A DNA stretch of 47,136 nucleotides from Chiloscyllium plagiosum (Eukaryota): assembly GCF_004010195.1 (NCBI RefSeq), contig NC_057756.1, positions 4,980,050 through 5,027,185 of the forward strand, in the 5' to 3' direction. The notes under the pieces were generated by a model that did no database searches, was not told where the DNA came from, and saw only the letters and a program-made list of their open reading frames with translations. A program made the translations under genes and the position numbers. Positions 10,259 to 44,429 of this stretch are shown piece after piece. Numbering within the stretch: position 1 is the stretch's first letter; the number at the start of each line of letters is the position of its first letter.

Positions 10259-10286
10259 GACGTTTCAGGCAAGAGCCCTTCATCAG
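10259..10286 (-). ncRNA. Minimal type I hammerhead ribozyme motif (G.U at the base of stem II)
   Basis: Reverse strand CTGATGA A GGGC TCTT GCCT GAAA C GTC. Confidence 0.7.
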
Positions 10287-10355
10287 GAAAGGGAAGTGGC
10301 TGGAGCTAACAGAAAGCGATTTGGGTGAAACGACGTCCGGCAACAGACCCCATTC

Positions 10356-10383
10356 CTGATGAAGGGCTTTTGCCCGAAACGTC
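10356..10383 (+). ncRNA. Minimal type I hammerhead ribozyme motif, intact core
   Basis: CTGATGA A GGGC TTTT GCCC GAAA C GTC. Confidence 0.8.
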
Positions 10384-11202
10384 GATTTTTCTCCTGCTCC
10401 TCGGATGCTGCCTGACCTGCTGTGCTTTTCCAGCACCAGCCTCTCGACGCTGATCTCCAGCATCTGCAGTCCTCGCTGTCTCCTTCCAGGGACATGGGCC
10501 AAGTGCTGGAAAAATGGGACTAGATTAGGTTGGGATATTCTGGTCGGCGCGGACGAGTTGGACCGAAGGGCCTGTTTCCGCGCTGGAGGACCTAATGACT
10601 CTGAAAAAGCCAGCACTATCGGGAGAGAACAACAGATGAAAGCTGATAGAACGGAGAAACAGTTGCGAGTGGACAAAAGAATTGAGTTTGATCTTTCGCT
10701 CTGGCCATACTGCAGACAGGAAACAAATTACCAGTCGACAGAAACGAACAGGGCAGGGCTTTCCTGCTGACACACAAGAGAACGTGGACAAAAAAAAAAG
10801 AAACCCCAGGTACAACTTTCTACTTTGAGATGCGATTAAACGTCCAACTAACAAAACTGTGGCAACATTTAAACAAGTTCTACTCATTCAGGAAACGGCT
10901 GGAGCTAACACGAAGCGATTTGAGTGGAACAAAGTTTTGGCACCGACCCCAGCCCACAGATCTGATAGCCTCATTGTTTCTGAACTGTGACCCATCGGGT
11001 CAAAAGGTCATGCCAGACCCTCACTGGGACAGAATTGTTCTGTCAGAAGGGGTGTCCATTCAAAGCATTTGTAAGTGCACAGGAAGTGCTCTACAGGATG
11101 GGAGCTGGATTGCTAGTCTCAAGGGATATAATTCATAGCCATATTAAAGGCTCACAGCTCTTGGAGGAAGTAAGAGGTAGAAGAGAAGTGAGGGATGGAA
11201 TT

Positions 11203-11578
11203 GAGTCATAGAGATGTACAGTACGGAAACAGACCTTTCCAACTCCTGTACTCAATACTCTGACCAATAAAGGAAAGCATACCAAACACCTTCTTCACTA
11301 TCCTATCTTCCTGCGACTCCACTTTCAAGGAGCTATGAACCTGCACTCCAAGGTCTCTTTGTTCAGCAACACTCCCTAGGACCTGACCATTAAGTATACA
11401 AGTCCTGCTAAGATTTGCTTTCCCAAAATGCAGCACCTCACGTTTATCTGAATTAAACTCCATCTGCCACTCCTCAGCCCATTGGCCCATCTGGTCCAGA
11501 TCCTGTTGTAATCTGAGGTAACCTTCTTCGCTGTCCACTACACCTCCAATTTTGGTGTCATCTGCAAACTTACTAACT
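11203..11578 (-). mobile_element. CR1/HER1-type LINE fragment with internal deletion
   Basis: SKFADDTKIGGVVDSEEGYLRLQQDLDQMGQWAEEWQMEFN joined directly to the 3' tail. Confidence 0.9.
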
Positions 11579-11711
11579 AGACGGAGGGAATCGGGATTAA
11601 ATATTTTGGGTATACCAACGCAACAATCTTGCGCATTTATTAAAAAGCACATGCAATAGTGTCCTGTCGGAGGTCAAGGGTCTGAACGTTATCAATTATG
11701 GCCCTGTTTGA

Positions 11712-11990
11712 GTTAGAATCGCAGACCCCCTGCAGTGCAGAGAGGCGCCATTCAGCCCATCCACTCTGACCTCCTGAAGAGCATCACACCCGATCCCAGG
11801 AATCCAGCGCTTTTCCCATGGCCGATCCACCTTAACCTGGACATCTTCGGCCCTTGGGAGGAAACTGAGCGCCTGGAGGGAAATCCACAGGGATAACTGT
11901 GCTAACTCCACAGTTGCCCGAGGCTGGAATTGAACCTAGGTCCCTGGCGCCGTGAGGCAGCAACGCAAACCCACTGAGCCACCCTGTTGT
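11712..11990 (-). mobile_element. Degenerate HE1-type SINE
   Basis: Recognisable head (cccgaggctggaattgaacctaggtccctggcgccgtgaggcagc). Confidence 0.7.
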
Positions 11991-12597
11991 GCCAAGGTCA
12001 TATAATCACCTCTCAGCCCTGAGCGTTCTCCCCACCCCCCACCACACCCACACCCAGACCTGACTACCACAATGGCAACCCTCACCTGTACCTTTGTGAC
12101 CACCAGATACGTCCGCTCCACTCTCTCCTAACCTCGGTGAGCCGGAGACCACGCAAAGCTCTGCCATTTCGACTCAAAACGAATCCTGTTCACCCGTCAC
12201 CCACAGCGCCCGCTGCCCCGTGTCAGCTCCTGAGCAGTTTTCAAATTCTCAAATCCTTCCCTGAGCTCAGCTGTCCCCCTTCCTGACCATGCATTCTCCC
12301 TCTCCTGGCCCTATAACCGTCTCAGATCCCTGCACACCACTTCCGGTCTTTGGGAATAATCTTACGCTTCCATCTCCCCATTAGCTGTGTTGGGTCAGTT
12401 TTTTCTCCTTTCCATCCCAAACGTTCGCACTGATTTACCATCTCAGTCACTCCTTCGCCATCCCCCCCTCCCTCTCCAATGGTCACTGCCTTTTGTTTCT
12501 GCTCTGGGCTCCATAACTATCCGCCCAACTCACTCCTCCTCTCTCTGTGTCAACCCCCTATTTTCCAGGCCTTTCCTGTTCCAGAGAAGACTCAAAA

Positions 12598-14100
12598 TGT
12601 GCACACGTGTGGGTGTGTGTGTGCGCGCGTATATGTGTGTGTGTAAGTGTGTATGTGTCTGTATGTGTGTGTGTGAGAGAGTGTCTGTGTGTGTGTATGT
12701 GAGTGTCTGTGCATGTGAGTGTGTCTGTGTGTGTGTCTGTGTGTATGTCTTTGTGTGTGTATGTCTGTGTGTGTGTATTTGTGTGTCTGTGTGTGTGACT
12801 GTGTATGTCTGTGTGTATTTGTGTGTCTGTGTGTGTATATTTGTGTGTCTGTGTGAGTGAGAGTGTGTGTGTGTGGGTGTGGGGTGCTGGGGTTNNNNNN
12901 NNNNNNNNNNNNNNNNNNNNNNNNNNNNNNNNNNNNNNNNNNNNNNNNNNNNNNNNNNNNNNNNNNNNNNNNNNNNNNNNNNNNNNNNNNNNNNNNNNNN
13001 NNNNNNNNNNNNNNNNNNNNNNNNNNNNNNNNNNNNNNNNNNNNNNNNNNNNNNNNNNNNNNNNNNNNNNNNNNNNNNNNNNNNNNNNNNNNNNNNNNNN
13101 NNNNNNNNNNNNNNNNNNNNNNNNNNNNNNNNNNNNNNNNNNNNNNNNNNNNNNNNNNNNNNNNNNNNNNNNNNNNNNNNNNNNNNNNNNNNNNNNNNNN
13201 NNNNNNNNNNNNNNNNNNNNNNNNNNNNNNNNNNNNNNNNNNNNNNNNNNNNNNNNNNNNNNNNNNNNNNNNNNNNNNNNNNNNNNNNNNNNNNNNNNNN
13301 NNNNNNNNNNNNNNNNNNNNNNNNNNNNNNNNNNNNNNNNNNNNNNNNNNNNNNNNNNNNNNNNNNNNNNNNNNNNNNNNNNNNNNNNNNNNNNNNNNNN
13401 NNNNNNNNNNNNNNNNNNNNNNNNNNNNNNNNNNNNNNNNNNNNNNNNNNNNNNNNNNNNNNNNNNNNNNNNNNNNNNNNNNNNNNNNNNNNNNNNNNNN
13501 NNNNNNNNNNNNNNNNNNNNNNNNNNNNNNNNNNNNNNNNNNNNNNNNNNNNNNNNNNNNNNNNNNNNNNNNNNNNNNNNNNNNNNNNNNNNNNNNNNNN
13601 NNNNNNNNNNNNNNNNNNNNNNNNNNNNNNNNNNNNNNNNNNNNNNNNNNNNNNNNNNNNNNNNNNNNNNNNNNNNNNNNNNNNNNNNNNNNNNNNNNNN
13701 NNNNNNNNNNNNNNNNNNNNNNNNNNNNNNNNNNNNNNNNNNNNNNNNNNNNNNNNNNNNNNNNNNNNNNNNNNNNNNNNNNNNNNNNNNNNNNNNNNNN
13801 NNNNNNNNNNNNNNNNNNNNNNNNNGAGTGTGTGTGAGAGAGTGTGAGTGTGTGTGAGAGAGTATGTGTGTGTGAGAGTGAGAGTGTGTGTGAGAGAGTG
13901 TGAGTGTGTGTGAGTGTGTGTGGGAGAGTGTGAGTGTGTATGAGAGTGTGTGTGTGTGTGAGAGAGAGAGTGTGTGTGTTTATGTGTGTGTGTGTGAGAG
14001 AGAGAGAGTATGTGAATGAGAGAGAGTGTGTGTGAGTGAGTGTGTATGAGAGTGTGTGTGTGCTTGAGAGAGTGTGTGTGTGCGTGTCTGTCTCTCTCTC
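12598..14100. repeat. (GT/GA)n compound microsatellite spanning a 931-N assembly gap (12895-13825)
   Basis: Visible low-complexity GT/GA runs on both sides of the gap. Confidence 0.95.
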
Positions 14101-14344
14101 TCCATCTCTTCCTCCACAGATGCTGCATTTTTCCAGCACATTCTGCTTGTCTTTGGGTGTTTGGACTTCCTGCTTTTGATTATTGGGGCTGGGGTATGAG
14201 CTGGAATGTCAAGCTGAGTTTAAAATCAGATCAGCTACTCAGTGGTGAAGTATATTTAAAACGCTACCTGGCCTACTTTGTTTTGTATGTTAGCTTTACT
14301 GCGTTAAGTTGTTAAGCTTTTGGAATTCTGTATTTGAACGTTCT

Positions 14345-16005
14345 AACCAGGACTGGACCTACTCAGTGATTGGTACGTCCCTGGGGAGTGTTACCTAACA
14401 GAGAGACCTGGGTTCAGGTACATAGTTCCTTGAAAGCTGTGTCACAGGTAGACAGGGAGGTGAGGAAGGCGTTTGGCATGCTTGTCTTTATCAGTTGGAT
14501 TATTGAGTACAGGCGTTGGGACATCATGTTATGGCTGTAGAACATATTAGCAAGGCCATATTTGGAGTACTGTGTAGACTTCTGGTCACCCTGTTATTGG
14601 AAGGATGCTATTAAACTAGAAAAGGTGCAAAAAGGATGTCAGCGAGACTGGAGGGTTTGAGCTATAGGGAGAGGATGAATGGGCTGGGGCTGTTTTCCCT
14701 GGAGCGTCAGAGGCTGAGGGATGACCTTGTAGAGGTTTATAAAATCATGAGGGGCATGGATAGGGTAAATACACATGGTCTTTTCCCTGGGGTGGGGGAG
14801 TCCAGAACGAGAGGGCGTAGGTTTAGGGTGAGAGGGGAAAGATATAACAGAGACCTAAGGGGCAACGTTTTCATACACTGGGTGGTACGTTTATGGAATG
14901 AGCTGCCAGAGGATGTAGTGGAGGCTGGTACAATTACAGCATTTAGGAGGTATTTGGATGGGTGTGTGAATAGGAAGGGTTTGGAGGGATATGGGCCAAG
15001 TGCTGGCAAATGGCACTAGTTTTATTTCGGTTTTCTAGTTGGCTTGGAGAGGTTGGACCAAAGGACAGAACCCCTTCATGCCCCTCACCTTCCAACCCAC
15101 CAACCTTTGCATAAATTGCATCATCCGCCAACATTTCCGTCACCTCCAAACAGACCCCACCACCAGGGATATATTTCCCTCCCCACCCCTATGTGCTTTC
15201 CACAAAGACCATTCCTTCTGTGACTACCTGGTCAGGTCCACGACCCCCAACAACCCACCCTCCCATCCTGGCACCCTCCCCTGCCACCGCAGGAACTGCA
15301 AAACCTGCGCCCACACCTCCCCCCTCACCTCTATCCAAGGCCACAAAGAAGCCTTCCACATCCATTAAAGTTTCACCTGCACATCCACCAATATCATTTA
15401 TTGTATCCGTTGCTCCCGATGCAGTCTCCTCTACATTGGGGAGACTGGACACCTCCTAGCAGAGCGCTTTAGGGAACATCTCTGGGACACCCGCANNNNN
15501 NNNNNNNNNNNNNNNNNNNNNNNNNNNNNNNNNNNNNNNNNNNNNNNNNNNNNNNNNNNNNNNNNCCTGTCAATCTTTCTTCCCACCTATCTGCTCCACC
15601 CTCCCCTCCGACCTATCACCTTTACCCCCACCTCCATCCACCTGTTGTTCCCAGCTGCCTTCTCCCTGGCCCCACCCCCCTCCCATTTATCTCTCCACCC
15701 CTGAGGCTCCCAGCCTCATTCCTGAAGAAGGGCCTTTGCCCGAAACATCGATTTTCCTGCACCTCGGATGCTGCCTGACGTACTGTGCTTTTCCAGCACT
15801 GCTCTAATCTAGACTCTAACCTCCAGCATCTGCAGTATCCCCTTCTGCCTAGGTTGGACCAAAGGGTCTGTTTGCATGCTGCGTTACTCCATGAGTCTAA
15901 TCGGAAAGGATTAGAGGGATAGGGGCAAACGTAGGCAAATGGGCAACCTGGTTGGCATGGACATATAGGGCCGAAGGGCGTGTTTTCACGCTGTGTGACT
16001 TTATG
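14345..16005 (+). mobile_element. CR1 3' portion interrupted at 15065-15850 by a PLE
   Basis: ORF 14636-15019 is the CR1 ORF2 C-terminus; the tail resumes after the TSD at 15851. Confidence 0.88.
15065..15850 (+). mobile_element. 5'-truncated Penelope-like element (Neptune-type): Cys linker, GIY-YIG endonuclease and pseudo-LTR
   Basis: PCHRRNCKTCAH linker, then after one stop FTCTSTNIIYCIRCSRCSLLYIGETGHLLAERFREH. Perfect 15-bp TSD aggttggaccaaagg (15050-15064, 15851-15865). Hammerhead motif at 15722-15749 with GTC changed to ATC. Confidence 0.92.
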
Positions 16006-17855: not shown

Positions 17856-17857
17856 TA

Positions 17858-18700
17858 TACGGTGGCTCAGTGGTTAGCGCTGCTGCCTCACAGCACCAGG
17901 GTCCCAGGTTCGATTCCAGCCTCAGGCGACTGTCTGTGTGGAGTTTGCACATTCTCCCTGTGTCTGCGTGGGTTTCCTCCAGGTGCTCCGGTTTCCTCCC
18001 ACAGTCCAAAGATTTGCAGGTCAGGGTGGATTGGCCGTGCTAAATTGTCCCATAGTGTCCAGGGATGTGTAGGTTAGCGTGGATTGGCCATGCTAAATTG
18101 TCCCATAGTGTTCAGGGATGTGTAGGTTAGGGTGGATTGGCCATGTTAAATTATAGAGAGAAAGTGAGGACTGCAGATGCTGGAGATCAGAGCTGAAAAT
18201 GTGTTGCTGGAAAAGCGCAGCAGGTCAGGCAGCATCCAAGGAAGGAAAATCGACATTTCGGGCATAAGCCCTTCTTCAGGAAGGGCTTCTTTCCTGAAGA
18301 AGGGCTTATGCCTGAAACGTCGATTCTCCTTCCTTGGATGCTGCCTGACCTGCTGCGCTTTTCCAGCAACACATTTTCAGCATGTTAAATTATACCATAG
18401 TGTTCAGGGATGTGTAGGTTAGGGTGGATTGGCCATGCTAAATTGTCCCATAGTGTCCAGGGATGTGCAGATTAGGGTGGATTGACCATGTTAAATTATA
18501 TCATAGTGTTCAGGGATGTGCAGATCAGGGTGGATTGGCCATGCTAAATTACCCATCGTGTTCAGGGATGTATAGGTTAGATGCATTAGTAAGGCGCAAA
18601 TATAGGGTAGTGGAATAGGTCTGGGTGGGTTACTCTTTGTTGGGTCGGTGTGGACCTGTTGGGCCGAAGGGCCTGTTTCCGTACTGTAGGGATTCTAATT
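17858..18700 (+). mobile_element. HE1-type SINE with expanded 53-bp internal array, interrupted by palindromic PLE P2
   Basis: tRNA-like head at 17858-17925, repeated ggattggccatgctaaatt units, tail gggccgaagggcctgtttcc. Confidence 0.9.
18156..18380. mobile_element. Palindromic non-autonomous PLE insertion (P2) with a hammerhead motif on each strand
   Basis: Near-perfect inverted arms around 18283-18290; exact 14-bp TSD catgttaaattata (18142-18155, 18381-18394). Motifs at 18252-18279 (-) and 18294-18321 (+). Confidence 0.9.
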
Positions 18701-20135: not shown

Positions 20136-23100
20136 CCCCTTAATTCTGAGACTATGCCCTCTGGTTTTAAACTCTTCCATGAGGGGAAACATCTTCGCAG
20201 CATTTACCCAGTGAAGCCCCTTAAGAATCTGATATGTTTCAATGAGATCACCTTTCGTTCTTCTAAACTCCAACGAGTAGACTCCAAACCTGTTTAACCT
20301 TACATTGGTAGATGAGTTGCACTTGGAGTCCCAGAAGGCATTCATCAAGATACTTTCCAAGAGGTTAAGTCATAAGAGAAGAACCCACAGAGCTGGAGAT
20401 AGTATATTGGCATGGATAGGAAATCGGCAGGAAACAGCAAGTGGGGATTAGAGGTTCTTTTACAGATGGGAGACCTGTGACCAATGGGGTTCCATAGAGA
20501 TCATCTTACTGCACCTCCATACCAGGGATCATCTTACTGCACCTCCTCTGAAATGTCTCCAACGAAATAACATCTTTCTTAAATAAAGGGACCAAAACTC
20601 CCCACAGTACTCCAGATGTGGTCTCACCAGTACTGTGTACAGTTGCAGTATGATTTCCCTTCTCTTATACTCCAAACCCCTTGAAATAAGGTCCAATATT
20701 TAATTGACCTTCCTGATTACTTGCTGCACCTGTGTGCTAACTTTCTGTATTTCATGCACAAGTACTCTGAAGTCCCTTTGTGTTTTTAGTTGTCTGCAGC
20801 TTTTCCTAATTTCAATAATATTCTGTATATTGTTCTGCCTTCCAAAATGAACAACTTCACATTATCCCCCATTTGGCAAATTTTGATTAGATTTGATTCC
20901 CCACAGTGTGAAAACAGGCTCTTCGGCCCAACAAGTCCATACCAACCCTCCAAGGAGTAACCCACCCAGACCCATTTCACCTCTGACTAATGCACCTAAC
21001 ACTATGGGTAATTTAGCATAGCCAATTCACCTCACCTGCACATCTTTGGGCTGTGGGAGGAAACCAGAGCAAACCCACACAGACACAGGGAGAATGCAAA
21101 CTCCACACAGAAAGTCACCCAAGGCTGGAATTGAACCTGGGACCCTGGTGCTGTGAGGCAGCAGTGCTAACCACTGAGCCACCATGCCACCCAACTTTTT
21201 GCCCACTAACTCAATCTATCTCTCTGTAAAGTGTTTGTATTCCTCTCACAACCTGCCTTTCCACCTATGTTTGTGTCATCTGGAAATTTAGCTCCATATA
21301 TTCACTTCCTTCCTTCACATCATTAATATATTGTAAACAGTTGCGATGATCCCTTTGGAACCCCATTGGTCACACGTCTCCCATCTGTAAAAGAACCTCT
21401 AATCCCCACTTGCTGTTTCCTGCCCATGAGCCGATTTCCTATCCATGCCAATATACTACCTCCAGCACTGTGGGTTCTTCTCTTATGACTTAACCTCTTG
21501 GAAAGTACCTTGATGAATGCCTTCAGGGACTCCAAGTGCAACTCATCTACCAATGTCCCTCTATCCCATCTGGTTGAGACTGCTTCGAAAAGCTCTAATG
21601 AATTAGTCAATTCCCTTTCATGAAGCTATGCTGGCTCTGTTTGTTTAGATTAGATTTTTCATTTGCTCTGCTATTGCTTCCCTAATAATTAATTCCAATA
21701 CTTTTCCAACAGTAGATGTTAGGCTAATTGGCCTATAGTTACCTGCTTTATGCCTGCCTCCCTTTTTGATTAGGGGTGGCACATTAGCAGTTTTCCAGTC
21801 CACTGGTGCTTCTGCAGAATCCAATGATTTTTGGAAAATTACAACCAATGCATCCACCATTCCTGTAGCTACTTCTTTTAGGATCCTAGGATGGAAGCCA
21901 TCATGCCTTTAGCCCCATTGGTTTACCTACAACTGCTTCTTTAGTGATTATATTTAATTCCTCTGCTGTATTCTTTAATATTAAAGGAACAGTCAAAGTA
22001 TCCTCCACCATAAAGACTGACTCAAAATATCTCTTTAACTCCTCTGTTCCCTCAATATGTATTCCCAGGTACATTTTCTAAAGAATTTATGTTCACTTTC
22101 ACCCCTCTCTTTCTTTTCATATATTTAAAGAAGCTCTTAGTGTCAGTTTCTTTATTCCTCACTAGTTTGCTCTCGTCTGCTCAGTCTTTATTATCTTTTT
22201 AGTCCTCCTTTGCTGGATTCTGAAACTATTCCAGTCTTTGGGGCTATCACTGACTTTGACCTCCTTATATGCTTTTTGGTTCAACTTAATGTTCTCCTTA
22301 ACTTCCTTGGTTAATCATGGTGGTTTATCCCTCTCTCACCGGGAATATTTTTGCTGAGAGTCATGACTTACTTCCTTCGAAGGGCTACTGCCTGAAGGGC
22401 TACTGTCAACTTTCCTGCTCCTTGGATGCTGCCTGACCTGCTGTGCTTTTGCTAGTGCCGCACTTTTCTACTCTTACCTTGTTAAATGTTTGCCACTGCT
22501 AGCTTACTGTCATCCCTGCAAAACTAACTGCCCAGTTCACTTTGGATAAATCTATCTGCATTTCATTGTGATTCCCTTTATTTAAGTTAATCATATTGGT
22601 TTCTGACCCAGGTTTCTCACTCTTGAACTGAACCTTGAATTCTATCATGTTATGATCACTGCTTCTTAGAGGATATTTTACTCAGAGATCATTTATTAAA
22701 CCTTACCCATTCAATACAGCCTGCTCTGTGATTGGTCCATGATATTTGATGTGGGAAACTCTCCCTAATGCACTCCGAGTCATTATTGTAGCTACGCTTT
22801 CCAATTTCATTAATCCAATCGACATGAAGATTAAAGTCACCTATAATTTTTGCTCTTTTCTTTTTACATGTTCCTGTTATTTATTGATTTGTAAGCATTC
22901 CCATAGAATGGCTACTCTTGGATCTATACACCATTCCTACCAATGTTTTCTTTTCCTTGCTGTTTTTTTAACCTGGGCCCAAATGATCTGTATGTCATCT
23001 GAGCCTAAGTCATCTCTCACAAATGTCCTCATTTCATTTCTTATTAACAGTGCTACTCCACCAACCCTTCCTTCCCTCCTCTGTCTCTGAAAGGTCAAAT

Positions 23101-23140: not shown

Positions 23141-23144
23141 CAGA

Positions 23145-23500: not shown

Positions 23501-23988
23501 ATATGAGTTTATCTTGCATTTGCAGAATTATATTTGCAGATACATTTCATCTTGTTCAAAAAGCACACAATCTGGAGGCAGTCAGGCAATGGGACATTGC
23601 AACAATTCTTACTGGGAAACAGGACCAGTCTGTTTGGAACACAGACAGACTCTAACCTTACAACTTTAATGCATTGTCTGAGCTGAGATGGCACCTTTTT
23701 TTAAAAATAAAACCTTAAGTTATCTCGGGAATGTAACTTGAAAGAAGTTCTGGAATTTACATATAAATGCCTCAAACCCACATCCCCATTCTAAGTGATT
23801 AAAGACTTGACAGCATTCTAGGTTTGTTCAATACATTGCATCAGTTGTGTGACATGATCTTTTATGATAAATTCTGTGTCCTATGATCCTGCCCCACTAG
23901 CTACCTGATGAAGGAGCAGCGCTCCGAAAGCCAGTACTTCCCAAGTAAGTCTGTTGGACTTTAACCTGGTGTTGTGTGCTTTTGAACG
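23500..23988 (+). mobile_element. PLE pseudo-LTR of a third family with a hammerhead motif at 23905-23933
   Basis: CTGATGA A GGAGC AGC GCTCC GAAA GCCA (cleavage triplet altered), followed by ctgttggactttaacctggtgttgtg terminus. Confidence 0.7.
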
Positions 23989-23999
23989 TAGGTTATAAG

Positions 24000-24600: not shown

Positions 24601-24966
24601 ACCCATTCCTAACCTATATTTACCTCTGAGTATGGGCAATTTAGCACGGCCAATCCACCGGTGATTGGACCCATTCCCCTAACCTATATTTACCTCTGAG
24701 TATGGGCAATTTAGCACGGCCAATCCACTTTAACCTGCACATCCCTGGGCATTATGGGGCAATTTAGCATGGCCAATCCACCCTAAACTGCACATCCCTG
24801 GACACTATGGGGCAATTTAGCATGGCCAATCCACCCTAACCTACACATCCCTGGGCACTATGGGACAATTTAGCATGACCAAACCACTCTAACGTGCACA
24901 TCGCTGGGCACTATGGGACAATTTAGCATGGCCAAACCACTCTAACGTGCACATCGCTGGGCACTG

Positions 24967-25355
24967 AACCCTCCAACCACAAGGGATGAACTCGGATTTC
25001 ACCAGTTTCCTCATTTCCCCTCCCCCCAGCCTGTCTCAGTCAAATCCATCAAATTCAGCACCGCCTTCCTAACCTGCAATCTTCTTCCCGACCTCTCCGT
25101 CCCCACCCCAGTCTGACCTATCACCCTCACCTTGACCTCTTTCCACCTATCACATTTCCGACGCCCCTCCCCCAAGTCCCTCCTCCCTATCTTTTATCTT
25201 AGCCTGCTGGACCAACTTTCCTCATTCCTGAAGAAGGGCTAATGCCCGAAACGTCGATTCTCCTGTTCCCTAGATGCTGCCTGACCTGCTGCGCTTTTCC
25301 AGCAACACATTTCCATCTCTGATCTCCAGCATCTGCAGACCTCACTTTCTCCTCG
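24967..25355 (+). mobile_element. Neptune-type PLE 3' end / pseudo-LTR
   Basis: Ends the ORF (TLQPQGMNSDFTSF), then pyrimidine-rich UTR, hammerhead, and terminus ctccagcatctgcagacctcactttctcct. Confidence 0.85.
25228..25255 (+). ncRNA. Minimal type I hammerhead ribozyme motif, intact core
   Basis: CTGAAGA A GGGC TAAT GCCC GAAA C GTC. Confidence 0.8.
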
Positions 25356-25950
25356 ACAATTTAGCTTGCCCAATCCACCCTAACCTGCAGATCGCTGGGC
25401 ACTATGGGACAATTTAGCTTGCCCAATCCACTCTAACCTACACATCCCTGGGCACTATGGGACAATCTAGCATGGCCAATCCACCCTAACCTGCACATCC
25501 CTGCACACGATGGGATAATGTAGCATGGCCAATCCACCCTAACCTACGCATCCCTGGACACTATGGGATAACTTTGCATGGCCAGTCCACCCTAACCTGC
25601 ACATCTTTGGATTGAGTTGCCGAGGCTGGAATCGAACCTGGGCCCTGGCACTGTGAGGCTGGTGTGCTTACCACTGAGTTCCCGTGCTGTCCATTAAATA
25701 CCAGCCCAGCGATGCCCACATTCCATGAGTGAATAATGACAGCTGAGAGCAACTCTGTAAAACGGTGCGTGGCCGTCATGAGGACAATATTGAGTCAGAC
25801 AGCTAAAGCCGACTGGTAGATTTTAAGGAGTGTTTCAAAGGGAGCTGAGCAGGATGTGTGCCTGGTCAAGTGAACATTCAGCCACAGACAATGCAAGAGT
25901 CAACACTGAAAATGCTCAAAAAGTGGAAGATCTTAGACATCATTGAGGCT

Positions 25951-26074: not shown

Positions 26075-26251
26075 AGAGGGAAAGAGGGAGGACTGGAGGT
26101 GCTGGAGATCAAGAGTGTGGCGCTGGGAAAGCACAGCAGGTTAGGCAGCATCCGAGGAGCAGCATAAGCCCTTCTTCAGGAATTCTGATGCCCGAAACGT
26201 CGATTCTCCTGCACCGACCTGTTGTGCTTTCCCAGCGCCACACTCTCGATG
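26075..26251. mobile_element. Palindromic PLE insertion (P3), both hammerheads partly deleted
   Basis: Arms gagtgtggcgctgggaaagcac / gtgctttcccagcgccacactc; 9-bp TSD ttattgccc (26066-26074, 26252-26260). Confidence 0.8.
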
Positions 26252-30354: not shown

Positions 30355-31880
30355 AGAGCCATAGAGCCAGCACGGAAACAACCCCTTCAGTCCAGCCCGT
30401 CCATGCCGACCCAGATATCCCAACCCAATCTAGTCCCACCTGCCAGCACCCGGCCCATATCCCTCCAAACCCTTCCTATTCATATACCCATCCAAATGCT
30501 TTTTAAATGCTGTCATTGTACCAGCCTCCACCACTTCCTCTGGCAGCTCATTCCACACACGTACCACCGTCTGCGTGAAAAAGTTGTCCCTTAGGTCCCT
30601 TTCACATCTTTCCCCTCTCATTTTAAACCCCTGCTCTTCTAGTTTTTGAATCCCCGACCCTGAGGAGAAAAACTTTGGCTATTCAGAGTTGAAAAGGGTT
30701 GTGCTGGAAAAGCACAGCAGGTCAGGCAGCATCCGAGGAGCAGGAGAATCGATTTTTGGGTTTGGCTATACACCCTAGCTGCGCCCCATGTGATTTTATT
30801 AATTTCCACAAAGTCACCCCTCAGTCTTTGACGCTGCACGGAAAATAGCCCCAATCTATTCAGCCACTCCCTCTCCAGTCCAAGTAATACCTTTGTAAAT
30901 TTTTTCTGAACCTTTCCACATTTAATGACTTATTTCTTGGAGCAGGGAAACCATAATTGAACACAATATTCCGAAAGTCGTCTAACCAGTACAGCCACAG
31001 CATGACCTCTCAACTCCTGCACATGATACACTGATCAACAAAGAGAAAGTGGAGTTGCAGGTTGACAGGATAGTGAAGAAGGCGTTTGGTATGCTTTCCT
31101 TTATTGGTCAGAGTGTTGAGTACAGGAGTTGGGAGGTCATGTTGACAGGACATTGGTAAGGCCACTGTTGGAATTCTGGTCTCCTTCCTATCAGAAAGAT
31201 GTTGTGAAACTTGAAAGGGTTCATAAGGGGCAATTTTTTAACGCAGAGGGTGGTACATGTATGGAATGAGCTGCCAGAAGCTGGTACTTTTGCAACATTT
31301 AAGAGGCATTTGGATGGGCATATGATTGGGAAGGGTTTGGAGGGATATGGGCCAGGTGCTGGCAGGTGGGACTAGATTGGGTTGGGATATCTGGTTGGCA
31401 TGGACTGGTTGGACCGAAGGGTCTGTTTCCATGCTGTACATCTCTATGACTCTAGGAGAGGATGATTAGGCTGGAACTGTTTTCTCTGGAGTGTCGGAGG
31501 CTGAGGGGTGACCTTATAGAGGTTTATAAAATCATGAGGGACATGGATAGGATAAATAGACAAGGTCGTTTCCCTGTGGTGGGGGAGTCCAGAACTAGAG
31601 GGCATAGGTTTAGGGTGAGAGGGGAATGATATAAAAGAGACCTAAGGGGCAACTTTTTCACGCAGAGGGTGGTACGTATGTGGAATGAGCTGCCTGAGGA
31701 AGTGGTGGAGGCTGGTACAATTGCAAACATTTAAGAGGCATTTGGATGGGTATATGAATAGGAAGGGTTTGGAGGGATATGGGCCGGGTGCTGGCAAATG
31801 GGATGAGATTGGGTTGGGATATCTGGTCGGCATGGACGGTTTGAACCGAATGGTCTGTTTCTCTGGTGTACGTCTTGATG
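30355..31880. mobile_element. CR1 fragments (30355-31040 -, 31045-31880 +) with a short PLE terminus at about 30684-30755
   Basis: CR1 tail translations; PLE piece flanked by tttggctat direct repeats (30674-30682, 30761-30769). Confidence 0.85.
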
Positions 31881-32257: not shown

Positions 32258-32352
32258 TTTAGATCAGAGCGGTGCTGGAAAAGCACAGCAGGTCAGGCAG
32301 CATCCGAGGATCAGGATAATCAACGTTTAGGGCAAAAGCCCTTCATCAGGAG
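32258..32352 (-). mobile_element. PLE terminus with an inactivated hammerhead motif (GAAA changed to TAAA)
   Basis: Reverse strand CTGATGAAGGGCTTTTGCCCTAAACGTT at 32322-32349. Confidence 0.75.
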
Positions 32353-32744: not shown

Positions 32745-33815
32745 GAACTTTGAGTTGGGATATCATGTCGAGGTTGTATGTTGGTGAGGCCTTTTCAGGA
32801 GTATTGTGTCCAGTTAGATTAGATCCCCGACAGTGTGGAAACAGGCCCTTCGGCCCAACAAGTCCACACCGACCCTCCGAAGAGTAACCCACCCAGACCC
32901 ATTTCCCTCTGACTAATGCACCTAACACTATGGGACAATTTAGCATGGCCAATCCACCCTAACCTGCACATCCCTGGGCACTGTGGGACAATTTAGCACG
33001 GCCAATTCCCCCCTTACCTGCACATCCCTGGGCACAATGGGACAATTTAGCATAGCCAATCCACCCTAACCTGCACATCCCTTGGCACTTTGGCAATCCA
33101 CCCTAACCTGCACATCCCTGGGCACTATGGGACAATTTAGCATGGCCAATCCACCCTAACCTGCACATCTTTGGACTGTGGGAGGAAACAGGAGCACCCG
33201 GAGGAAACCCACGCAGACACGGGGAGAACGTGCAAACTCCACACAGATAGTCGCCTGAGGGGGGAATCGAAGCTGGGACCCCGGTGCCGTGAGGCAGCAG
33301 TGCTAACCCACTGAGCCACCATGCAGCCCTGTTCGAAGAAGGACATTATTAAGCTGGAGGGGGTTCAGAAAGGATTTGTCAGGGTCTCGCTGGGGAATGG
33401 AGGGTTTGAGTTGGAAGGAGAGGCTGGATCAGCTGGGATTTTCTTCACTGGAGTTTGAGGATGACTGAATGAAGATTTATAAGATCATGAGGGGTATAGA
33501 TAAGGCGAATGACAGGTGCGTTTTTCCCTAAGGTGGGGGGAGTTTCTAGACTAGGTGGCCTATCTTTAGGGTGAGAGGAGAAAGATTTAAAAAGGACATG
33601 TTTTACATACGCGTGCGGATTGAACTTCCAGCGGAAGTGGTGGATGCGGGTAGAGTTACAATATTTAACAGACATTTGGATAAGTACATGAATAGGAAAT
33701 GTTTGTAGGGATATGGGCCAAGTGCAGGCAGGTGGGACTAGTTTAGCTTGGGATTATGGTCAGCATGGACTGGTGGTATCGAAGAGTCTGTTTCCATGCT
33801 GTATGGCTCTATGAC
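32745..33815 (+). mobile_element. CR1 3' portion with nested HE1-type SINE (about 32815-33328, -) carrying 53-bp repeats
   Basis: CR1 sequence on both sides of a full SINE. Confidence 0.85.
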
Positions 33816-33999: not shown

Positions 34000-34118
34000 G
34001 AAAAAAAAAACCCAGAAGTTGCTGGAGAAACTCAGCAGGTCTGGCAGGTGTCTGTGCAGAGAGAAAGCAGAGTCAACATTTCTTGTCCAGTAACTCTTCT
34101 TCAGAGAACTCTGATGAT
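34000..34118 (-). mobile_element. Short PLE-like terminus of another family with a decayed hammerhead
   Basis: Reverse strand CTGAAGA AGAGTTACTGGACAA GAAA TGTT, then ccagacctgctgagtttctccagca. Confidence 0.6.
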
Positions 34119-34409: not shown

Positions 34410-34890
34410 GCACTATGGGACAATTTAGCATGGCCAATCCACCCTAACTTGCTAAATTATCCCACAGTGCTCAGGGATGTGCAGGTTAGGGTGGATTGGC
34501 CATGCTAAATTATCCCACAGTGCTCAGGGATGTGCAGGTTAGGGTGGATTGGCCGTGCTAAATTATCCTACAGTGCTCAGGGATGTGCAGGTTAGGGTGG
34601 ATTGGCCGTGCTAAATTGTCCCATAGTGCCCAGGGATGTGCAGGTTAGGGTGGATTGGCCGTGCTAAATTGTCCCATAGTGCTCAGGGAAGTGCAGGTTA
34701 GGGTGGATTGGCCATGCTAAATTGTCCCATAGTGTTCAAGGATGTGTAGATTAGGTGCATTAGTCAGGGGTAAATGTTGAGCAATAGAGTAGGGTAGGGG
34801 AATAGGTCTGGGTGGGTTACTATTCAGAGGGTCAGTGTGGGCTTGTCGGGCCGAAGGGCCTGTTCCCACACTGTAGGGATTATAATCTTA
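34410..34890 (+). mobile_element. HE1-type SINE 3' part with 53-bp array; first unit (34410-34450) inverted
   Basis: Period 53 (gcaggttagg at 34481 and 34534); head absent. Confidence 0.85.
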
Positions 34891-36547: not shown

Positions 36548-39500
36548 CACTGTAAAACACTGGGGTACTATAATAGAGGGGACAGATGTATCACTGTGTA
36601 ACACTGGGGTACGGTATTGTTGGGGACAGGTCTGTGACTGTGTAACACTGGGGTACTGTAATGGTGGGGACAGGTCTGTCACTGTATAACACTGGGGTAC
36701 AGTACTGGTGGGGACAGGTCTGTCACTGTGTAACACTGGGGTATGGTATTGGTGGGGACAGGTCTGTCACTGTGTAACACTGGGGTACCGTACTGGTGGG
36801 GACAGGTCTGTCACTGTGTAACACTGGGGTACAGTACTGGTGGGTACAGGTCTGTCACTGTGTAACACTGGGGTACAGTACTGGTGAGGACAGATCTGTC
36901 ACTGTGTAACACTGGGGTACAGTACTGGTGGGGACAGGTCAGTCCCTGTATAACACTGGGGTACAGTACTGTTGGGGACAGGTCAGTCCCTGTATAACAC
37001 TGGGGTACAGTACTGGTGGGGACAGGTCAGTCCCTGTATAACACTGGGGTACAGTACTGTTGGGGACAGGTCAGTCCCTGTGTAACACTGGGGTACAGTA
37101 CCGGTGGAGACAGGTCTGTCACTGTATAACACAGGGGTACAGGTCTGGTGGGGACAGGTCTGTCTCTGTGTAAATCTGGGGTACAGTACTGGTGGGGAGA
37201 GGTCAGTCACTGTATAACACAGGGGTACAGTACTGGTGGACACAGGTCTGTCAGTGTATAACCCTGGGGCATTGTACAGGTGGGGACAGGTCTGTCACTG
37301 TATAACACTGGGGTACAGTACTGGTGGGGCTAGGTCTGTCTCTGTGTAACACTGGGGTACAGTACTGTTGTGACAGTTCTATCGCTGTATCACACTGGGA
37401 TACAGTATTGATGGGGACAGGTCTGTCACTGTGTAACACTTTGGTACAGTACTGGTGGGGACAGGTCTGTCTCTGTATAACACTGGTGTACAGTACTGTT
37501 GGGAAAGGTCTGTCACTGTGTACTGGGGTACAGTACTGATGGGGATAGGTCTGTCACTGTGTAACACTGGGGTACAGTATTGGTGGACACAGGCCTGTCA
37601 CTGTGTAACACTGGGGTACAGTACTGGTGGGGCTAGGTCTGTCTCTGTGTAACACTGGGGTACAGTATTGGTGGGGACTGGTCTGTCACTGTGTACTGGG
37701 GTACAGTACTAGTGGGGACAGGTCTGTCACTGTGTAACACTGGGGTACAGTACTGGTGGGGACAGGTCTGTCACTGTGTAACGCTGGGGTACAGCGCTGG
37801 TGGAGACAAGTCTGTCACTGTATAACACTGGTGTACAATACTGGAGGGTACAGGTCTGTCACTGTATGACACTGGGGCAGTGCACTGGTGGGGACAGGTC
37901 TGTTACTGTATAACAGTGGGGTACAGTACAAGTGAGGACATGTCTGTCACTGTGTAACACTGGCGTACAGCACTGGTGGAGACAGGTCTGTCACTGTATA
38001 TCACTGCAGCACAGTACTGGTGGAGACATGCCTGTTACTGTGTTACACTGGGGTACCGTACTGGTGGGGACAGGTCTGTCACTGTGTAATACTGGGATAC
38101 AGTACTGGTGGGGACAGGTCTATCACTTTATAACACTGGGGAACAGTACTGGTGGGAACAGGTCTGTCACTGTGTAACACTGGGGTACAGTACTGGTGGG
38201 GACAGGTCTGTCACTGTATAACACTGGGGTACAGTGCTGGTGGAGACATGTCTGTTACTGTGTAACACTGGGGAACAGTACTGGTGGGGACAGGTCTGTC
38301 ACTGTATAACACTGGGGAACAGTACTGGTGGGGACAGGTCTGTCACTGAATAACACTGGGGTACAGTACTGGTGGGACAGTTCCGTCGCTGTATAACACT
38401 GGGATACAGTACTGGAGGGTACAGGTCTGTCACTGTATAACACCGGGGAACAGTACTGGTGGGGACAGGTCTGTCACTGTGTAACACTGGGATACAGTAC
38501 TGGAGGGTACAGGTCTGTCACTGTATAACACTGGGGAACAGTACTGGTGGGGACAGGTCTGTCACTGTCTAACACTGGGGTGCAGTGCTGTTGGAGACAT
38601 GTCTGTTACTATGTAACACTGGGATACAGTACTGGTGGGGACAGGTCTGTCATTTGTATATCACTGGGGAACAGTACTGGTGGGCACAGGTCAGTTACTG
38701 TATAACACTTTGGCAAATACTGGTGGGGACAGGTCTGTCACTGAATAACACTAGGATACCGTACTGGTGGGACAGGTCCGTCGCTGTATAACACTGGGGT
38801 ACTGTACTGGTGGGGACAGGTCTGTCACTGTGTAACACTGGGGTACCGTACTGGTGGGGACAGGTCTGTCACTGTGTAACACTGGGGTACAGTACTGGTG
38901 GGCACAGGTCTGTCACTGTGTAACACTGGGGAACAGTATTGGAGAGTACAGGTCAGTCACTGTATAACACTAGGGCACAGTACAGGTGGGGACAGGTCAG
39001 TCACTGTATAACACTGTGGTGCATTACTTGTGTGGACAGGTCTGTCACTGTGTAACACTGTGGCAAGGTACTGTTGTGGCCAGGTCTGTCACTGTGTAAC
39101 AGTGGGGTACAGTACTGGTGGACACAGGTCAGTCACTGTATAACAGTGGGGTACAGTACTGGTGGACACAGGTCAGTCACTGTATAACACTGGGGTACAG
39201 TACTGGTGGGGACAGGTCTGTCACTGTGTACAGGGGTACAGTACTGGTGCGGACAGATTCAACGCTGTGTAACACGGGTACAGTACTGGTGGGGACAGGT
39301 CTGTCACTGTGTAACACTGGGGTACAGTACTGGTGGGGACAGGTCTGTCCCTGTATAACACTGGGGTACAGTACTGGTGGGGACAGGTCTGTCACTGTGT
39401 ATAGGGGTACAGTACTGTTGGGGACAGGTCTGTCAGTGTATAACACTGGGGTACAGTACTGGTGGGGACAGGTCTTTCACTGTATAACACTGGGGTACAG

Positions 39501-39935
39501 TAAAGGTGGATACAGGTCTGTCAGTGTATAACACTGGGGTACAGTAAAGGTGGGGACAGGTCTGTCACTGTTTACTGGGGTACAGCACTGGGGGGGACAG
39601 GTCTTTTGCTGTATAACATTGGGGTACAGTACTGGTGGGGACAGGTCTGTCACTGTGTAACACTGGGGTACAGTACTGGTGGGGACAGGTCTGTCACTGT
39701 ATAACACTGGGGTACAGTACTGGTGGGGACAGGTCTGTCACTGTATAACACTGGGGTACAGTACTGGTGGGGACAGGTCTGTCACTGTGTAACACTGGGG
39801 TACAGTACTGGTGGGGACAGGTCTGTCACTGTATAACACTGGGTTCAGTACAGGTGGGGACAGGTCTGTCACTGTATAACACTGGCGTACAGTACCGGTG
39901 GGGACAGGTCTGTCTCTGTATAACACTGGGTTCAG
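36548..39935. repeat. 44-bp tandem satellite, about 77 copies
   Basis: Unit CACTGGGGTACAGTACTGGTGGGGACAGGTCTGTCACTGT(G/A)TAA. Confidence 0.97.
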
Positions 39936-41164: not shown

Positions 41165-41660
41165 ATAAGACCATGAGACAATAAGACATAGGAGCAGAAA
41201 TTTGGCCATTCGGCCCATCGTGTCCGCTCCGACATTCAATCATATCTGATAACTTTCTCAACCCCATTCTCCCGCTTTCTCCCCCTGACCCTTCACCCCC
41301 TTGATACTCAGGAACCTATCCATCTCAGTCTTAAATATACTCAATGATCTGACCCTCACAGCCTTCGGTGGCAGTGAATCTCACAGATTCCCCACTCTCT
41401 GGCTGAAGAAGTTTCTCCTTATCCGTCCTAAAAGGTCTTCCCTTTATCCTAAGGCTGTTCCCTTGGGTCCGAGTCTCTCCTCCCAATGGAAACATCTTCC
41501 CAACATCCACTCTGTCCAGGCCATTCAATCACAGCGCCCCTCATCCTTCTAAACTCTATTGAGTCCTCAACTGTTCCTCATTTATTAAGCTTTTCACTCC
41601 TGGAACCATTCTCATGAATCTCCTCTGAACCCGCTCCAGGGTCAGTATATCCAGAGCTGA
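41165..41660 (-). mobile_element. CR1-family 3' end
   Basis: GLDRVDVGKMFPLGGETRTQGNSLRIKGRPFRT; (ataagacc)-type tail. Confidence 0.85.
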
Positions 41661-42664
41661 TAGAACTTCGGAACTACGTTGGACCAGATTAAAAGCCAGG
41701 GCTCTCTGATTGGACCAGATTAAAAACCAGGGCTCTTTGATTGAACTAGGTTAACAGCCAGGGCTCCCTGATTGGACCAGGTTAACAGCCAGTGCTCCCT
41801 GATTGGACAGGGCTAACAGCCAGTGCTCCCTGATTGGACAGGGCTAACAGACAGGGCTCCCTGATTGGACTGGGCTAACAGCCAGTGCTCCCTGATTGGA
41901 CCGGGTGAACATACAGGGCTCCCTGATTAGACCGGGTTAACAGCCAGGGCTCCCTGATTGGTCCGGGTTAACAGCCAGGGCTCCCTGATTGGACCGGTCT
42001 AACAGCCAGGACTCCCTGATTGGACTGGGTTGACAGCCAGGACTCCCTGATTGGACCGGGTTAACAGCCAGGGCTCCCTGATTGGACTGGGTTAACAGCC
42101 CGGGCTCCCTGATTGGACTGGGTTAACAGCCCGGGCTCCCTGATTGGACCGGGCTAATGGCCAGGGCGCCCTGATTGGACCGTGCTAATGGCAAGGGATC
42201 CCTGACTAGGCCGGGTTAACAGCCCGGGCTCCCTGATTGGACTGGGTTAACAGCCAGGGGTCCCTGATTGGACTGGGTTAACAGCCCGGGCTCCCTGATT
42301 GGACTGGGTTAACAGCCAGGACTCCCTGATTGGACCGGGTTAACAGCCAGGGCTCCCTGATTGGACTGGGTTAGCAGCCCAGGCTTCCTGATTGGACTGG
42401 GTTAACAGCCCAGGCCCCCTGATTGGACTGGGCTAATGGCCAGGGCTCCCTGATTGGACCGGGCTAATGGCCAGGGCTCCCTGATTGGACCGGGTTAACA
42501 GCCCGGGCTCCCTGATTGGACCGGGTTAACAGCCAGGGCTCCCTGATTGGACCGGATTAACAGCCAGGACTCCCTGATTGGACCAGGTTAACAACCACGG
42601 GTCCCTGATTGGACTGGGTTAACAGCCAGGACACCCTGATTGGACCAGGTTAACAGCCAGGGAT

Positions 42665-42888
42665 AAAGTGAGGACTGCAGATGCTGGAGATCAGAGCTGA
42701 AAATGTGTTGTTGGAAAAGCGCAGCAGGTCAGGCAGCATCCAAGGAGCAGGAAAATCGATGTTTCGGGCAAGAGCCCTTCTTCAGGAAGAAGCCCTTCCT
42801 GAAGAAGGGCTCTTGCCCGAAACGTCGATTCGCCTGCTCCTTGGATGTTGCCTGACCTGCTGCGCTTTTCCAGCAACACATTTTCAGC
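42665..42888. mobile_element. Palindromic non-autonomous PLE insertion (P4) with a hammerhead motif on each strand
   Basis: Inverted arms around 42789-42795; TSD-like taacagccagggat / tagcaaccagggat (42651-42664, 42889-42902). Motifs at 42758-42785 (-) and 42799-42826 (+). Confidence 0.9.
42799..42826 (+). ncRNA. Minimal type I hammerhead ribozyme motif, intact core
   Basis: CTGAAGA A GGGC TCTT GCCC GAAA C GTC. Confidence 0.8.
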
Positions 42889-43471
42889 TAGCAACCAGGG
42901 ATCCCTGATTGGACCGGGTTAGCCGTTCCAATCTGGAAACTCATATTCTATGAGCTCCATCAGGCTGACCTCATTATAATTAGTATAGTGTTTGTTTTGC
43001 CAACAAGGAGTGCCACCTTTGGAGAACTGGAGATAAAAGCTATTCATGCCTTTCCAAGAAAGCACACCTTATCACCGATTCCAACAATGAATGATGAATA
43101 ATATTGATTTGTACCGTCTGGAATGCATTTAACATTTTCTGGGTTTTCCCTCTGGCCTCAAAGTGTTTGCTGGGTTTCTACAATAAAAGAGCAAATCTGT
43201 GTCTCTCAGCAGAGCACCAAGTCACCTTATTAATTTTGCTCCATTTACAGCCGCACTATAAACCTTTCATACTCGATAACGTTTTCAGTGAGACATTGAG
43301 TTGGAGGTGTCATTGCAAGTTTTTGTAGATAGCTGCTCATTTTAATTCTGCTCAACTTGTACCAGAACGATACATCAATAAAAAGACCTGGAGAGACTCC
43401 ATGGGAAAAAAAAGTCTGTTCTTTTCCCAGGTAATTTGGAAAAGTTAGATCCCGGAGTTAGGCCTGACTTG

Positions 43472-43842
43472 ACACTTCAACCCCAGGGCATCAATGTGGA
43501 CTTCAACAGTTTCCTCATTTCCCCTTCCCCCACCTCACCCTAGTTCTAAACTCCCAGCTCAGCACTGTCCCCATGACTTGTCCGGACTTGTCCTACCTGC
43601 CTATCTCCTTTTCCACCTATCCACTCCACCCTCTCCTCCCTGACCTATCACCTTCATCTCCTCCCCTACTCACCCATTGTACTCTATGCTACTTTCTCCC
43701 CACCCCCACCCTCCTCTAGCTTATCTCTCCACACTTCAGGCTCACTGCCTTTATTCCTGATGAAGGGCTTTTGCCCGAAACGTCGATTTCGAAGCTCCTT
43801 GGATGCTGCCTGAACTGCTGTGCTCTTCCAGCACCACTAATT
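43472..43842 (+). mobile_element. Neptune-type PLE 3' end / pseudo-LTR
   Basis: TLQPQGINVDFNSF ORF end, pyrimidine-rich UTR and hammerhead. Confidence 0.85.
43757..43784 (+). ncRNA. Minimal type I hammerhead ribozyme motif, intact core
   Basis: CTGATGA A GGGC TTTT GCCC GAAA C GTC. Confidence 0.8.
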
Positions 43843-43940
43843 GAGAGATCACGAGCCTTATTTGTTTACCATGGAGGTCAGTCACTGAACATACTTACAA
43901 GAGGCTACCAGTATACATTTAATAAAAGGGAACGGCATTT

Positions 43941-44429
43941 AAAGTCTGTGTGAAGATTTGTAGCTCGGGTGCTCGTTGTTGTGGTTCTGTTCGCCGAGCT
44001 GGGAATTTGTGTTGCGGATGTTTCGTCCTCTGTCTAGGTGACATCCTCAGTGCTTGGGAGCCTCCTGTGAAGCGCTTCTGTATCTTTCCTCTGGCATTTG
44101 TAGTGGTTTGAATCTGCCGCCTCCGGTTATCAGTTCCAGCTGTCCGCTGCAGTGGTCGGTATATTGGGCTCAGGTCGATGTGCTTATTGATTGAATCTGT
44201 GGATGAGTGCCATACCTCTAGGAATTCCCTGGCTGTTCTCTGTTCCCTGGCACTCATCCACAGATTCAATCAATAAGCACATCGACCTGAGCCCAATATA
44301 CCGACCACTGCAGCAGACAGCTGGAACTGATAACCGGAAGCAGCAGATTCAAACCACTATAAATGCCAGAGGAAAGATACAGAAGCGCTTCACAGGAGGC
44401 TCCCAAGCACTGAGGATGTCACCTAGACA
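43941..44429. mobile_element. Penelope-like element (probably Poseidon clade) with about 180-bp inverted arms (P5)
   Basis: QRTAREFLEVWHSSTDSINKHIDLSPIYRPLQR (GIY-YIG C-terminus); arms at about 44030-44212 and 44248-44430; TSD gggaacggcattt / gggaatggcattt (43928-43940, 44430-44442). Hammerhead CTGAGGA T GTC..GAC GAAA CATC at 44017-44050 (-). Confidence 0.9.

Follow-up and report, generated by a model that had tools for sequence, protein, structure and literature searches.

Minimal hammerhead motifs in terminal repeats of truncated Penelope-like elements of the bamboo shark Chiloscyllium plagiosum

Minimal hammerhead motifs in the pseudo-long terminal repeats (pLTRs) of metazoan Penelope-like elements (PLEs) were described in 2014 (Cervera and De la Pena, PMC4209133), with Poseidon and Neptune elements of fishes among the reported carriers and no cartilaginous fish among the visible rows of its Fig. 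S3. In the open-licence literature, we found no paper on Penelope hammerhead ribozymes of sharks by these terms. Here, we analyzed a repeat-saturated stretch of Chiloscyllium plagiosum DNA (47,136 bases, of which 25,092 match another place within the stretch and 1,043 are N; hereafter, the window), for which an earlier examination (the original prediction) had listed 14 hammerhead motifs, ten of them in one group, family A. With a probability of about 85%, 13 of these motifs are hammerheads in the terminal repeats of truncated PLEs, the motif at 23905 likely being another, and all are likely inert in their present setting.

The window shares with the class described in 2014 (i) the order CUGANGA, an extra base, a stem II closed by a G-C pair, GAAA, a two-nucleotide palindrome and UH, (ii) a position in pLTRs following an open reading frame (ORF) that encodes a GIY-YIG endonuclease, mostly as solo copies of truncated elements, and (iii) dual copies on opposite strands, which that paper mentions for PLEs, and many sequence families per genome (PMC4209133). 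It differs in helix I of family A, where two pairs (UC/GA) are followed by U·U while the published descriptor demands three pairs; the 4-bp stem II of family A lies at the short end of the published range. Dimers of minimal hammerheads cleave poorly, and an extended Drosophila virilis construct cleaved weakly (PMC4209133). In the Poseidon element PAc of Anolis carolinensis, the hammerhead cleaved only with the element's protein, was dispensable for insertion in vitro, and showed no RNA-seq ends where it is cut (Frangieh et al. 2024, PMC11167929). A Poseidon-type ORF and the lack of RNA-seq ends at the cut site are common to PAc and the window. In the family of the 44017 motif, stem II has a methionine codon at its foot; this codon shares the reading frame of the related protein P0006 and lies 28 nt before the cut site, versus 26 in PAc. 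Protein-assisted cleavage of PAc was established by assay, whereas the window holds only broken fragments.

Two further systems resemble the inserts as units. PLEs with inverted pLTRs and a "tail" likewise have unequal head-to-head arms, duplications of 8-14 bp and heavy 5' truncation, and inverted pLTRs with short duplications are a described PLE pattern (PMC3846280; PMC8557442); the window differs in that its units span 200-690 bp and several inversions are centered on the front edge of the hammerhead. Animal non-LTR retrozymes, which were reported in the sole chondrichthyan sampled, also carry type I hammerheads in short units related to PLE pLTRs (Li, Clavereau, Pollet, 10.64898/2026.07.22.740005), but they form direct tandem repeats with a hammerhead in each unit, whereas the pairs in the window are inverted. 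None of the arrays in the window is built of a hammerhead-bearing unit.

Motifs, lineages and protein context

Remnants of PLE proteins lie upstream of the motifs at 15722, 43757, 44017 and 6740, on the same strand in each case, which bears out, for family A as well as for the 44017 and 6740 motifs, the proposal that these are minimal type I hammerheads of PLE pLTRs. The remnant preceding 15722 matched PF01541 (E 2e-5, above cut-off) and is 71% identical to protein P0009; a C-x4-C-x2-C linker is present both in the window (15081-15365) and in P0009, which extends upstream into sequence resembling reverse transcriptase (RT) and whose C-terminus matches 43486-43632 at 68%. A CX2-5CxxC linker between RT and GIY-YIG marks Neptune/Nematis-type PLEs (PMC8557442). 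By this linker, family A would be a Neptune-type PLE, an assignment that was made without a tree and so does not separate Neptune from Nematis. The endonuclease C-termini upstream of 44017 and 6740 match proteins P0002-P0007 at 76-87% and 38-61%, respectively, and RT is present in P0003 and P0006. P0003, in which RT and the endonuclease motif occur without the additional zinc-finger linker, matches 44245-44087 at 81% and 7043-7204 at 51%, suggesting that 44017 and 6740 belong to Penelope/Poseidon-type PLEs, with the absence of the linker read by eye and not placed on a tree. Residues 6-54 of P0006 read straight through the 44017 motif. The nearest proteins overall are RT-bearing PLE-type ORFs of Chiloscyllium punctatum.

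Three of the matching proteins are isoforms of host genes: P0002, P0007 and P0008, which match 44245-44037, are isoforms of a C. punctatum 5'-nucleotidase domain protein, MAP3K7 and NUDT6. The final part of each corresponds to the 44017 element in its sense orientation and is either a predicted terminal exon within a PLE end or a gene-model artefact.

All 14 motif sites lie where the original prediction placed them (by C3 for plus-strand copies and C17 for minus-strand copies). Direct sequence checks confirmed the site and state of each of the ten family A copies (Table 1), as well as the five loop sequences, TTTT, TCTT, TTAT, TAAT and CTTT. Agreement with the published motif extends to the core, the extra base after A9, the G10.1-C11.1 pair and the palindrome at 15.2-16.2. 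The conserved core CUGANGA...GAAA...UH is kept in nine of the ten family A copies (the exception, 32349, has G12>U); the extra base is A in all ten, and A, U, U and A in the four other motifs. Stem II is closed by G-C in 8/10 copies and by G·U in 2/10. In place of a real helix III there is a palindrome, as had been proposed, with CG at 15.2-16.2 in seven of ten copies and GC at 23905. Among the listed motifs, intact cores occur solely in family A (10356, 25228, 42799 and 43757), and all four are on the plus strand.

Motif searches placed most, although not all, of these sites above chance. We re-implemented the strict RNAmotif descriptor of Fig. S7 of PMC4209133, in which helix I comprises 3-7 contiguous pairs, and obtained no match in the window because three contiguous helix I pairs are demanded. 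With helix I set to at least 2 bp, there were nine matches, all family A, and none in any of 200 block-wise dinucleotide shuffles. A relaxed scan by number of defects returned six sites with none, five with one (including 23905), none with two and two with three; the corresponding means in 60 shuffles were 0, 0, 0.05 and 0.58. Eleven sites with at most one defect, against none in all 60 shuffles, mean that family A and 23905 are above chance on structure alone. The 6772-6739 motif, with three defects, is at chance level by this measure, and 6740, 44017 and 34075 are recognized through homology rather than structure. Other candidates were set aside: the CTGA-GA...GAAA matches at 1939, 30660, 32091, 34111, 35436, 46443, 46049, 23123 and 7890 fail the descriptors, and site 31694 scored at chance level. 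Rfam gave no hammerhead match at the gathering threshold in the whole window; for 43400-44500, searched up to E=10, its six matches included no hammerhead family and were hairpin-driven microRNA matches far below threshold. A structure-neutral pattern scan for relatives returned four viral and 52 metagenome loci; as 0/56 had BLAST similarity to the window and only 1/56 had a 4-bp stem, we treated them as chance and rejected them.

The four motifs with other stem II sequences all exist as predicted, but none is intact, and the original list thus makes functional motifs look more diverse than they are. At 23905, the 5-bp stem II is followed by the palindrome AGC(U), so that the triplet would not be GUC; this motif is single-copy in the window and stands alone as a lineage. 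The 44050-44017 motif has G16.2>A, unpaired 1.1-2.1 and only three contiguous stem II pairs. We compared the window with contigs and depth from three DNA runs of three organisms, in which a letter other than that of the window copy accounts for >98% of depth at 44016, 68-89% at 44019 and >96% at 44029. Most genomic copies of this family therefore have an ACGU palindrome (its CG in 68-89% of depth) and a 3-bp helix I, making the window copy a decayed member. The 7287 partner is more decayed than the 6772-6739 motif itself. The decayed motif at 34075 and family A have a 30-nt tail in common (83-87%). The claim of at least four families holds if subfamilies are counted; the five stem II variants fall into three lineages, namely (i) family A with 34075, joined by the tail, (ii) 44017 with 6740, joined by endonuclease and pLTR similarity, and (iii) 23905. 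The minus-strand motifs at 44017-44050 and 6739-6772 are close to those that the 2014 alignment shows for Clonorchis sinensis (GUCACC/GGUGAU in stem II, GCA/UGC in helix I; PMC4209133), a likeness that could reflect old shared descent or transfer.

Table 1. Hammerhead motifs, PLE remnants and other features of the window
Feature	Position	Strand	Remarks
Older Poseidon-type motif (6740)	6739..6772	-	Stem II GUUACC/GGUGAC; A13>G and C15.2>U; left arm of inverted pair 6681-7363
Partner of 6740 motif	7287..7320	+	Decayed, inverted; absent from the original prediction
Host exon, Ly6/uPAR-like	8129..8248	-	Intact AG/GT splice borders
Family A motif	10259..10286	-	G10.1·U11.1; left arm of pair with 10356
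Family A motif	10356..10383	+	C3 to C17; intact core; right arm of head-to-head pair
Neptune-type PLE ORF remnant (assigned by linker)	15081..15494	+	C-x4-C-x2-C linker and start of GIY-YIG; one stop codon; upstream of 15722
Family A motif	15722..15749	+	G16.2>A, palindrome broken; 3' pLTR of 5'-truncated element
Family A motif	18252..18279	-	C15.2>U; left arm of fold-back 18158-18380
Family A motif	18294..18321	+	G10.1·U11.1; right arm of fold-back 18158-18380
Family A remnant	22379..22450	+	Degenerate
Separate-lineage motif	23905..23933	+	Stem II GGAGC/GCUCC; helix I 3 bp; U16.1 replaced by C
Family A motif	25228..25255	+	Intact; predicted unsequestered; in solo pLTR 24966-25352
Family A fold-back unit	26079..26250		Internally deleted; 9-bp flanking direct repeat; absent from the original prediction
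Family A tail-only insert	30683..30760	-	Starts within stem II; 9-bp flanking direct repeat
Family A motif	32322..32349	-	G12>U and C17>U; solo mini-insert
Decayed motif	34075..34104	-	Two stem II pairs next to core lost; 3' tail common with family A
Family A motif	42758..42785	-	G16.2>A; left arm of fold-back 42661-42889
Family A motif	42799..42826	+	Intact core; right arm of fold-back 42661-42889; predicted hairpin-locked
Family A motif	43757..43784	+	Intact; predicted unsequestered; preceded by PLE ORF remnant 43486-43632
Poseidon-type motif	44017..44050	-	Broken; left arm of fold-back 43941-44430; follows endonuclease C-terminus 44245-44081
Partner arm of 44017	44248..44430	+	Inverted; 179/183 identical; truncated within stem II
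53-nt tandem arrays	8687-8862, 18004-18571, 24704-25605, 32926-33130, 34450-34755, 46179-46333, 1955-2071		

Insert architecture and sequence decay

Six of the ten family A copies form three head-to-head pairs, whose arms are identical at 78/87, 86/89 (the 18158-18380 fold-back) and 87/94 positions. The 44017 and 6740 motifs are also arms of inverted pairs, and the window contains five such pairs plus a broken one. Flanking direct repeats of 11, 14, 9, 8, 9 and 7 bp were found at 6/10 units tested; target duplications are unresolvable within tandem arrays (units 18158, 42661 and 24966), and one further unit gave 5 bp only. The 11-bp repeat (one mismatch) flanks the 10259/10356 unit, at ~10198-10487; the 14-bp repeat (one mismatch) flanks 43941-44430; and the 8-bp repeat flanks the mini-insert at 32322..32349, which begins 4 nt upstream of C3. 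In the first unit, the arms are separated by a filler (10287-10355) that is 77% identical over 61 nt to 10891-10951, 600 bp downstream, and is possibly local sequence captured at the inversion center. Family A inserts 18158 and 24966 landed within arrays of a 53-nt unit, and fold-back 42661-42889 was inserted at the end of a 31-nt minisatellite.

Of the ten full motifs, seven have their start no more than ~10 nt upstream of C3, and three run upstream into untranslated region (UTR) or ORF sequence. Across the 5' edge of the hammerhead (43740-43765), depth rose ~2.5-6-fold in the three DNA runs; contigs diverging just before 43753 numbered 955, 887 and 835, partly with the upstream sequence of another subfamily, and an opposite-strand joint, 43753/43794, recurred in 22, 11 and 11 contigs. 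Together, these data indicate that the start of a copy tends to coincide with the front edge of the motif, which precedes the cut site by 32 nt. The tail-only insert at 30683-30760 had been considered to begin at the cleavage site, a reading that we rejected since its flanking duplication sets the start inside stem II.

In family A, helix I consists of C-G and U-A in all ten copies, followed by U·U in nine and C·U in the tenth (U at 1.3 in 10/10 and at 2.3 in 9/10). Loose-end majority reads in the three DNA runs have the same GAUU strand, indicating that a 2-bp helix I with U·U is the state of the family and not local decay. Published PLE motifs with a 2-bp helix I include rows from Culex, Drosophila and Oikopleura (PMC4209133). 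The core and stem II differ among the ten copies by seven changes, all of them at CpGs and six of them transitions: 7/60 CpG cells changed, compared with 0/180 non-CpG core and stem cells (p=5e-5). This pattern suggests neutral decay after insertion.

The original prediction had read a varying loop on a fixed stem as the mark of a structured RNA. The contrast itself is present, with 8/40 loop cells varying against 0/180 non-CpG core and stem cells, and N7 varies too; however, the tail downstream shows about the same constancy as the core (six singleton changes in 310 cells, p=0.09), and the covariation check within family A found no compensatory change among the ten copies, at either the seven named or the 13 predicted pairs. 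Given this tail and copies that are not independent, the constraint would have acted on a small number of source elements rather than on the copies seen here. The three lineages resist base-by-base alignment; both of their helices differ wholesale while the core is kept, and this would be the actual structural support.

Cleavage and competing explanations

The architecture is consistent with the following sequence of events. Full-length source elements would carry the motif in both pLTRs, where, by analogy with published elements, it likely cleaves the element's own multi-unit RNA, either as a dimer or with the element's protein. Reverse transcription would begin near the 3' end and usually stop early; the inserts mostly comprise the last 90-130 nt, often with a mirror-image copy 5' and a short target duplication. 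Inserted copies would then decay neutrally at CpGs. A transcript across a mirror-image pair is predicted to fold as a long hairpin with the core buried, and solo copies would be without a partner.

Whether the family A motif is a nuclease even in active source elements can be questioned. With helix I shrunk to 2 bp, it might instead be kept as a protein-binding, promoter or RT-stop signal by which the 5' edge of the mini-inserts is set, given that the third helix I pair is U·U family-wide, that copies start at the front edge of the motif instead of the cut site, and that the Anolis element could still insert in vitro when mutations had disabled its hammerhead (PMC11167929). Yet an invariant non-CpG core beside a varying N7 and loop is the pattern expected if sources are still selected for catalysis, and a 2-bp helix I has the precedents given above, as does weak cleavage in the extended D. 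virilis construct (PMC4209133). We regard this explanation as doubtful, although it survives best among the alternatives.

An independent, non-autonomous family of retrozyme- or SINE (short interspersed element)-like units, amplified via their own small or circular RNA, would account for the common arm ends of fold-backs 18158-18380 and 42661-42889 and for the fact that most copies are <140 nt. This is very unlikely, as no tandem array has the motif in its unit, the fold-back centers differ, and the three copies that run upstream into ORF or UTR form a truncation series.

The original prediction had further proposed that intact copies could cut host pre-mRNA. As monomers, they cannot close helix III because of their sequence, and an inverted partner, being antisense, is unusable in a dimer. 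With +/-200 nt of context, none of the six paired copies is predicted to form stem II (probability 0), against a probability of 0.5-1.0 for 15722, 25228 and 43757; fold-back hairpins are predicted at -180 to -419 kcal/mol. Head-to-head pairs are thus predicted to bury the core in 6/10 family A copies, two of the four intact ones included. Intact copies on the same strand are spaced 14,872, 17,571 and 958 nt apart; the 958-nt pair (42799/43757) includes the hairpin-locked 42799, and the free copies 25228 and 43757 are 18.5 kb apart, leaving no closer free same-strand partner. For 42-nt pieces, the double-hammerhead fold, which rests on 4+2+2 bp, was predicted at -13.3 kcal/mol and competing dimers, some of which use the overlapping GUCGAU near-palindrome, at -24.1 to -27.0, energies computed without published active dimers as a positive control. 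All four intact motifs (plus strand) are antisense to the sole host exon found (minus strand). Nearest to it among the minus-strand motifs are the broken 6772 and 10286, which has the G·U pair and is predicted to be locked.

For transcripts, we used one single-cell poly(A) run, of which ~2% was read; 2,528 reads were placed, 80 of them at >=99% identity. No pile-up of RNA ends was found at GUC or anywhere else, a weak test with this library. Family A RNA was present on both strands at ~3:2, its depth over the core being about 385 and 607 reads, and the low-copy flank 43844-43921 had a depth of 0.4-2 reads. Reads of the 44017 family (43948-44077) were ~9:1 on one strand, which is the element's sense if the usual mate convention holds.

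Several points weigh against inert copies of PLE origin as the full account. For 23905, a link to a PLE protein was not found within the window. Stem II is predicted to persist in two intact copies, 25228 and 43757; the nearest-neighbor energies leave out help from protein; and the missing end pile-up is weak evidence, given a single-cell poly(A) library, ~2% read, in which only 80/2,528 reads were 99% alike. Family A RNA is abundant from elsewhere in the genome, and pairing in trans is conceivable. An account in which intact solo copies are active in host transcripts and, paired over long distance in cis, paired in trans with the abundant family A RNA or chaperoned by PLE protein, cut pre-mRNA at GUC could also draw on the four copies that retain every conserved core base, on the cleavage of the Anolis PLE hammerhead once the element's protein was added (PMC11167929) and on the depletion of related retrozymes from Xenopus introns (preprint 10.64898/2026.07.22.740005). 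With most copies mutated or in predicted dead hairpins, the orientation opposing the exon, the spacing and predicted energies given above, the read depth over the low-copy flank, and the poor cleavage of published dimers (PMC4209133), we consider cutting of host pre-mRNA in this window unlikely, and this account the least probable of the three alternatives.

Genomic setting and implications

The closest named proteins to the window are those of bamboo sharks: the PLE-type ORFs of C. punctatum and a uPAR-like protein of C. plagiosum (97%). The sole host exon found (8129-8248), and hence the only candidate for the direction of a host transcript, is 120 nt long and 97% identical to exon 2 of that uPAR-like (Ly6/PLAUR) protein. 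Other exons of this protein were found neither in the 8 kb downstream nor in the 39 kb upstream, where a gap of 931 N (12895-13825) could hide the first exon; 8129-8248 is either part of a long-intron gene or a displaced exon copy. When 132 stop-to-stop frames, each >=55 aa and mainly in non-repeated DNA, were scanned against Pfam, a single family exceeded its curated cut-off, a reverse-transcriptase fragment at 8302-8496; exons shorter than these frames would escape the scan. An ORF fragment without a Pfam match (8480-8690, minus strand), 230 bp upstream of the Ly6/uPAR exon, resembles a PLE N-terminal region. The surrounding repeats are presumably of the HE1/V-SINE and CR1/L2 types. Minisatellites occupy 36548-39930 (44 nt x 77 copies) and 41679-42662 (31 nt x 32 copies), and the 53-nt unit, which lies within a SINE-like repeat, occurs in 2-6 tandem copies at seven places.

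The class of motif is already known, and the window is ordinary retroelement debris; it adds cartilaginous-fish examples to the class described in 2014. Were host pre-mRNA indeed cut by intact copies, a density of about one intact core per 8 kb (a figure for this window only) would place a large hidden burden on long introns; the evidence points against such cutting. Published hammerhead counts that demand a 3-bp helix I would overlook the family that is commonest in the window. Published work leaves the function of PLE hammerheads undecided (PMC11167929; PMC8557442). Tentatively, and with the odds against it, the family A motif, whose helix I has two pairs plus U·U across three sampled species and whose copies start at its front edge, may act either as a ribozyme gated by protein or as a structural signal determining where reverse transcription stops and folds back; if so, this very abundant family would be a direct test bed for that role. 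For work on the function of PLE hammerheads, a family that is young and abundant and whose helix I is marginal offers convenient material.

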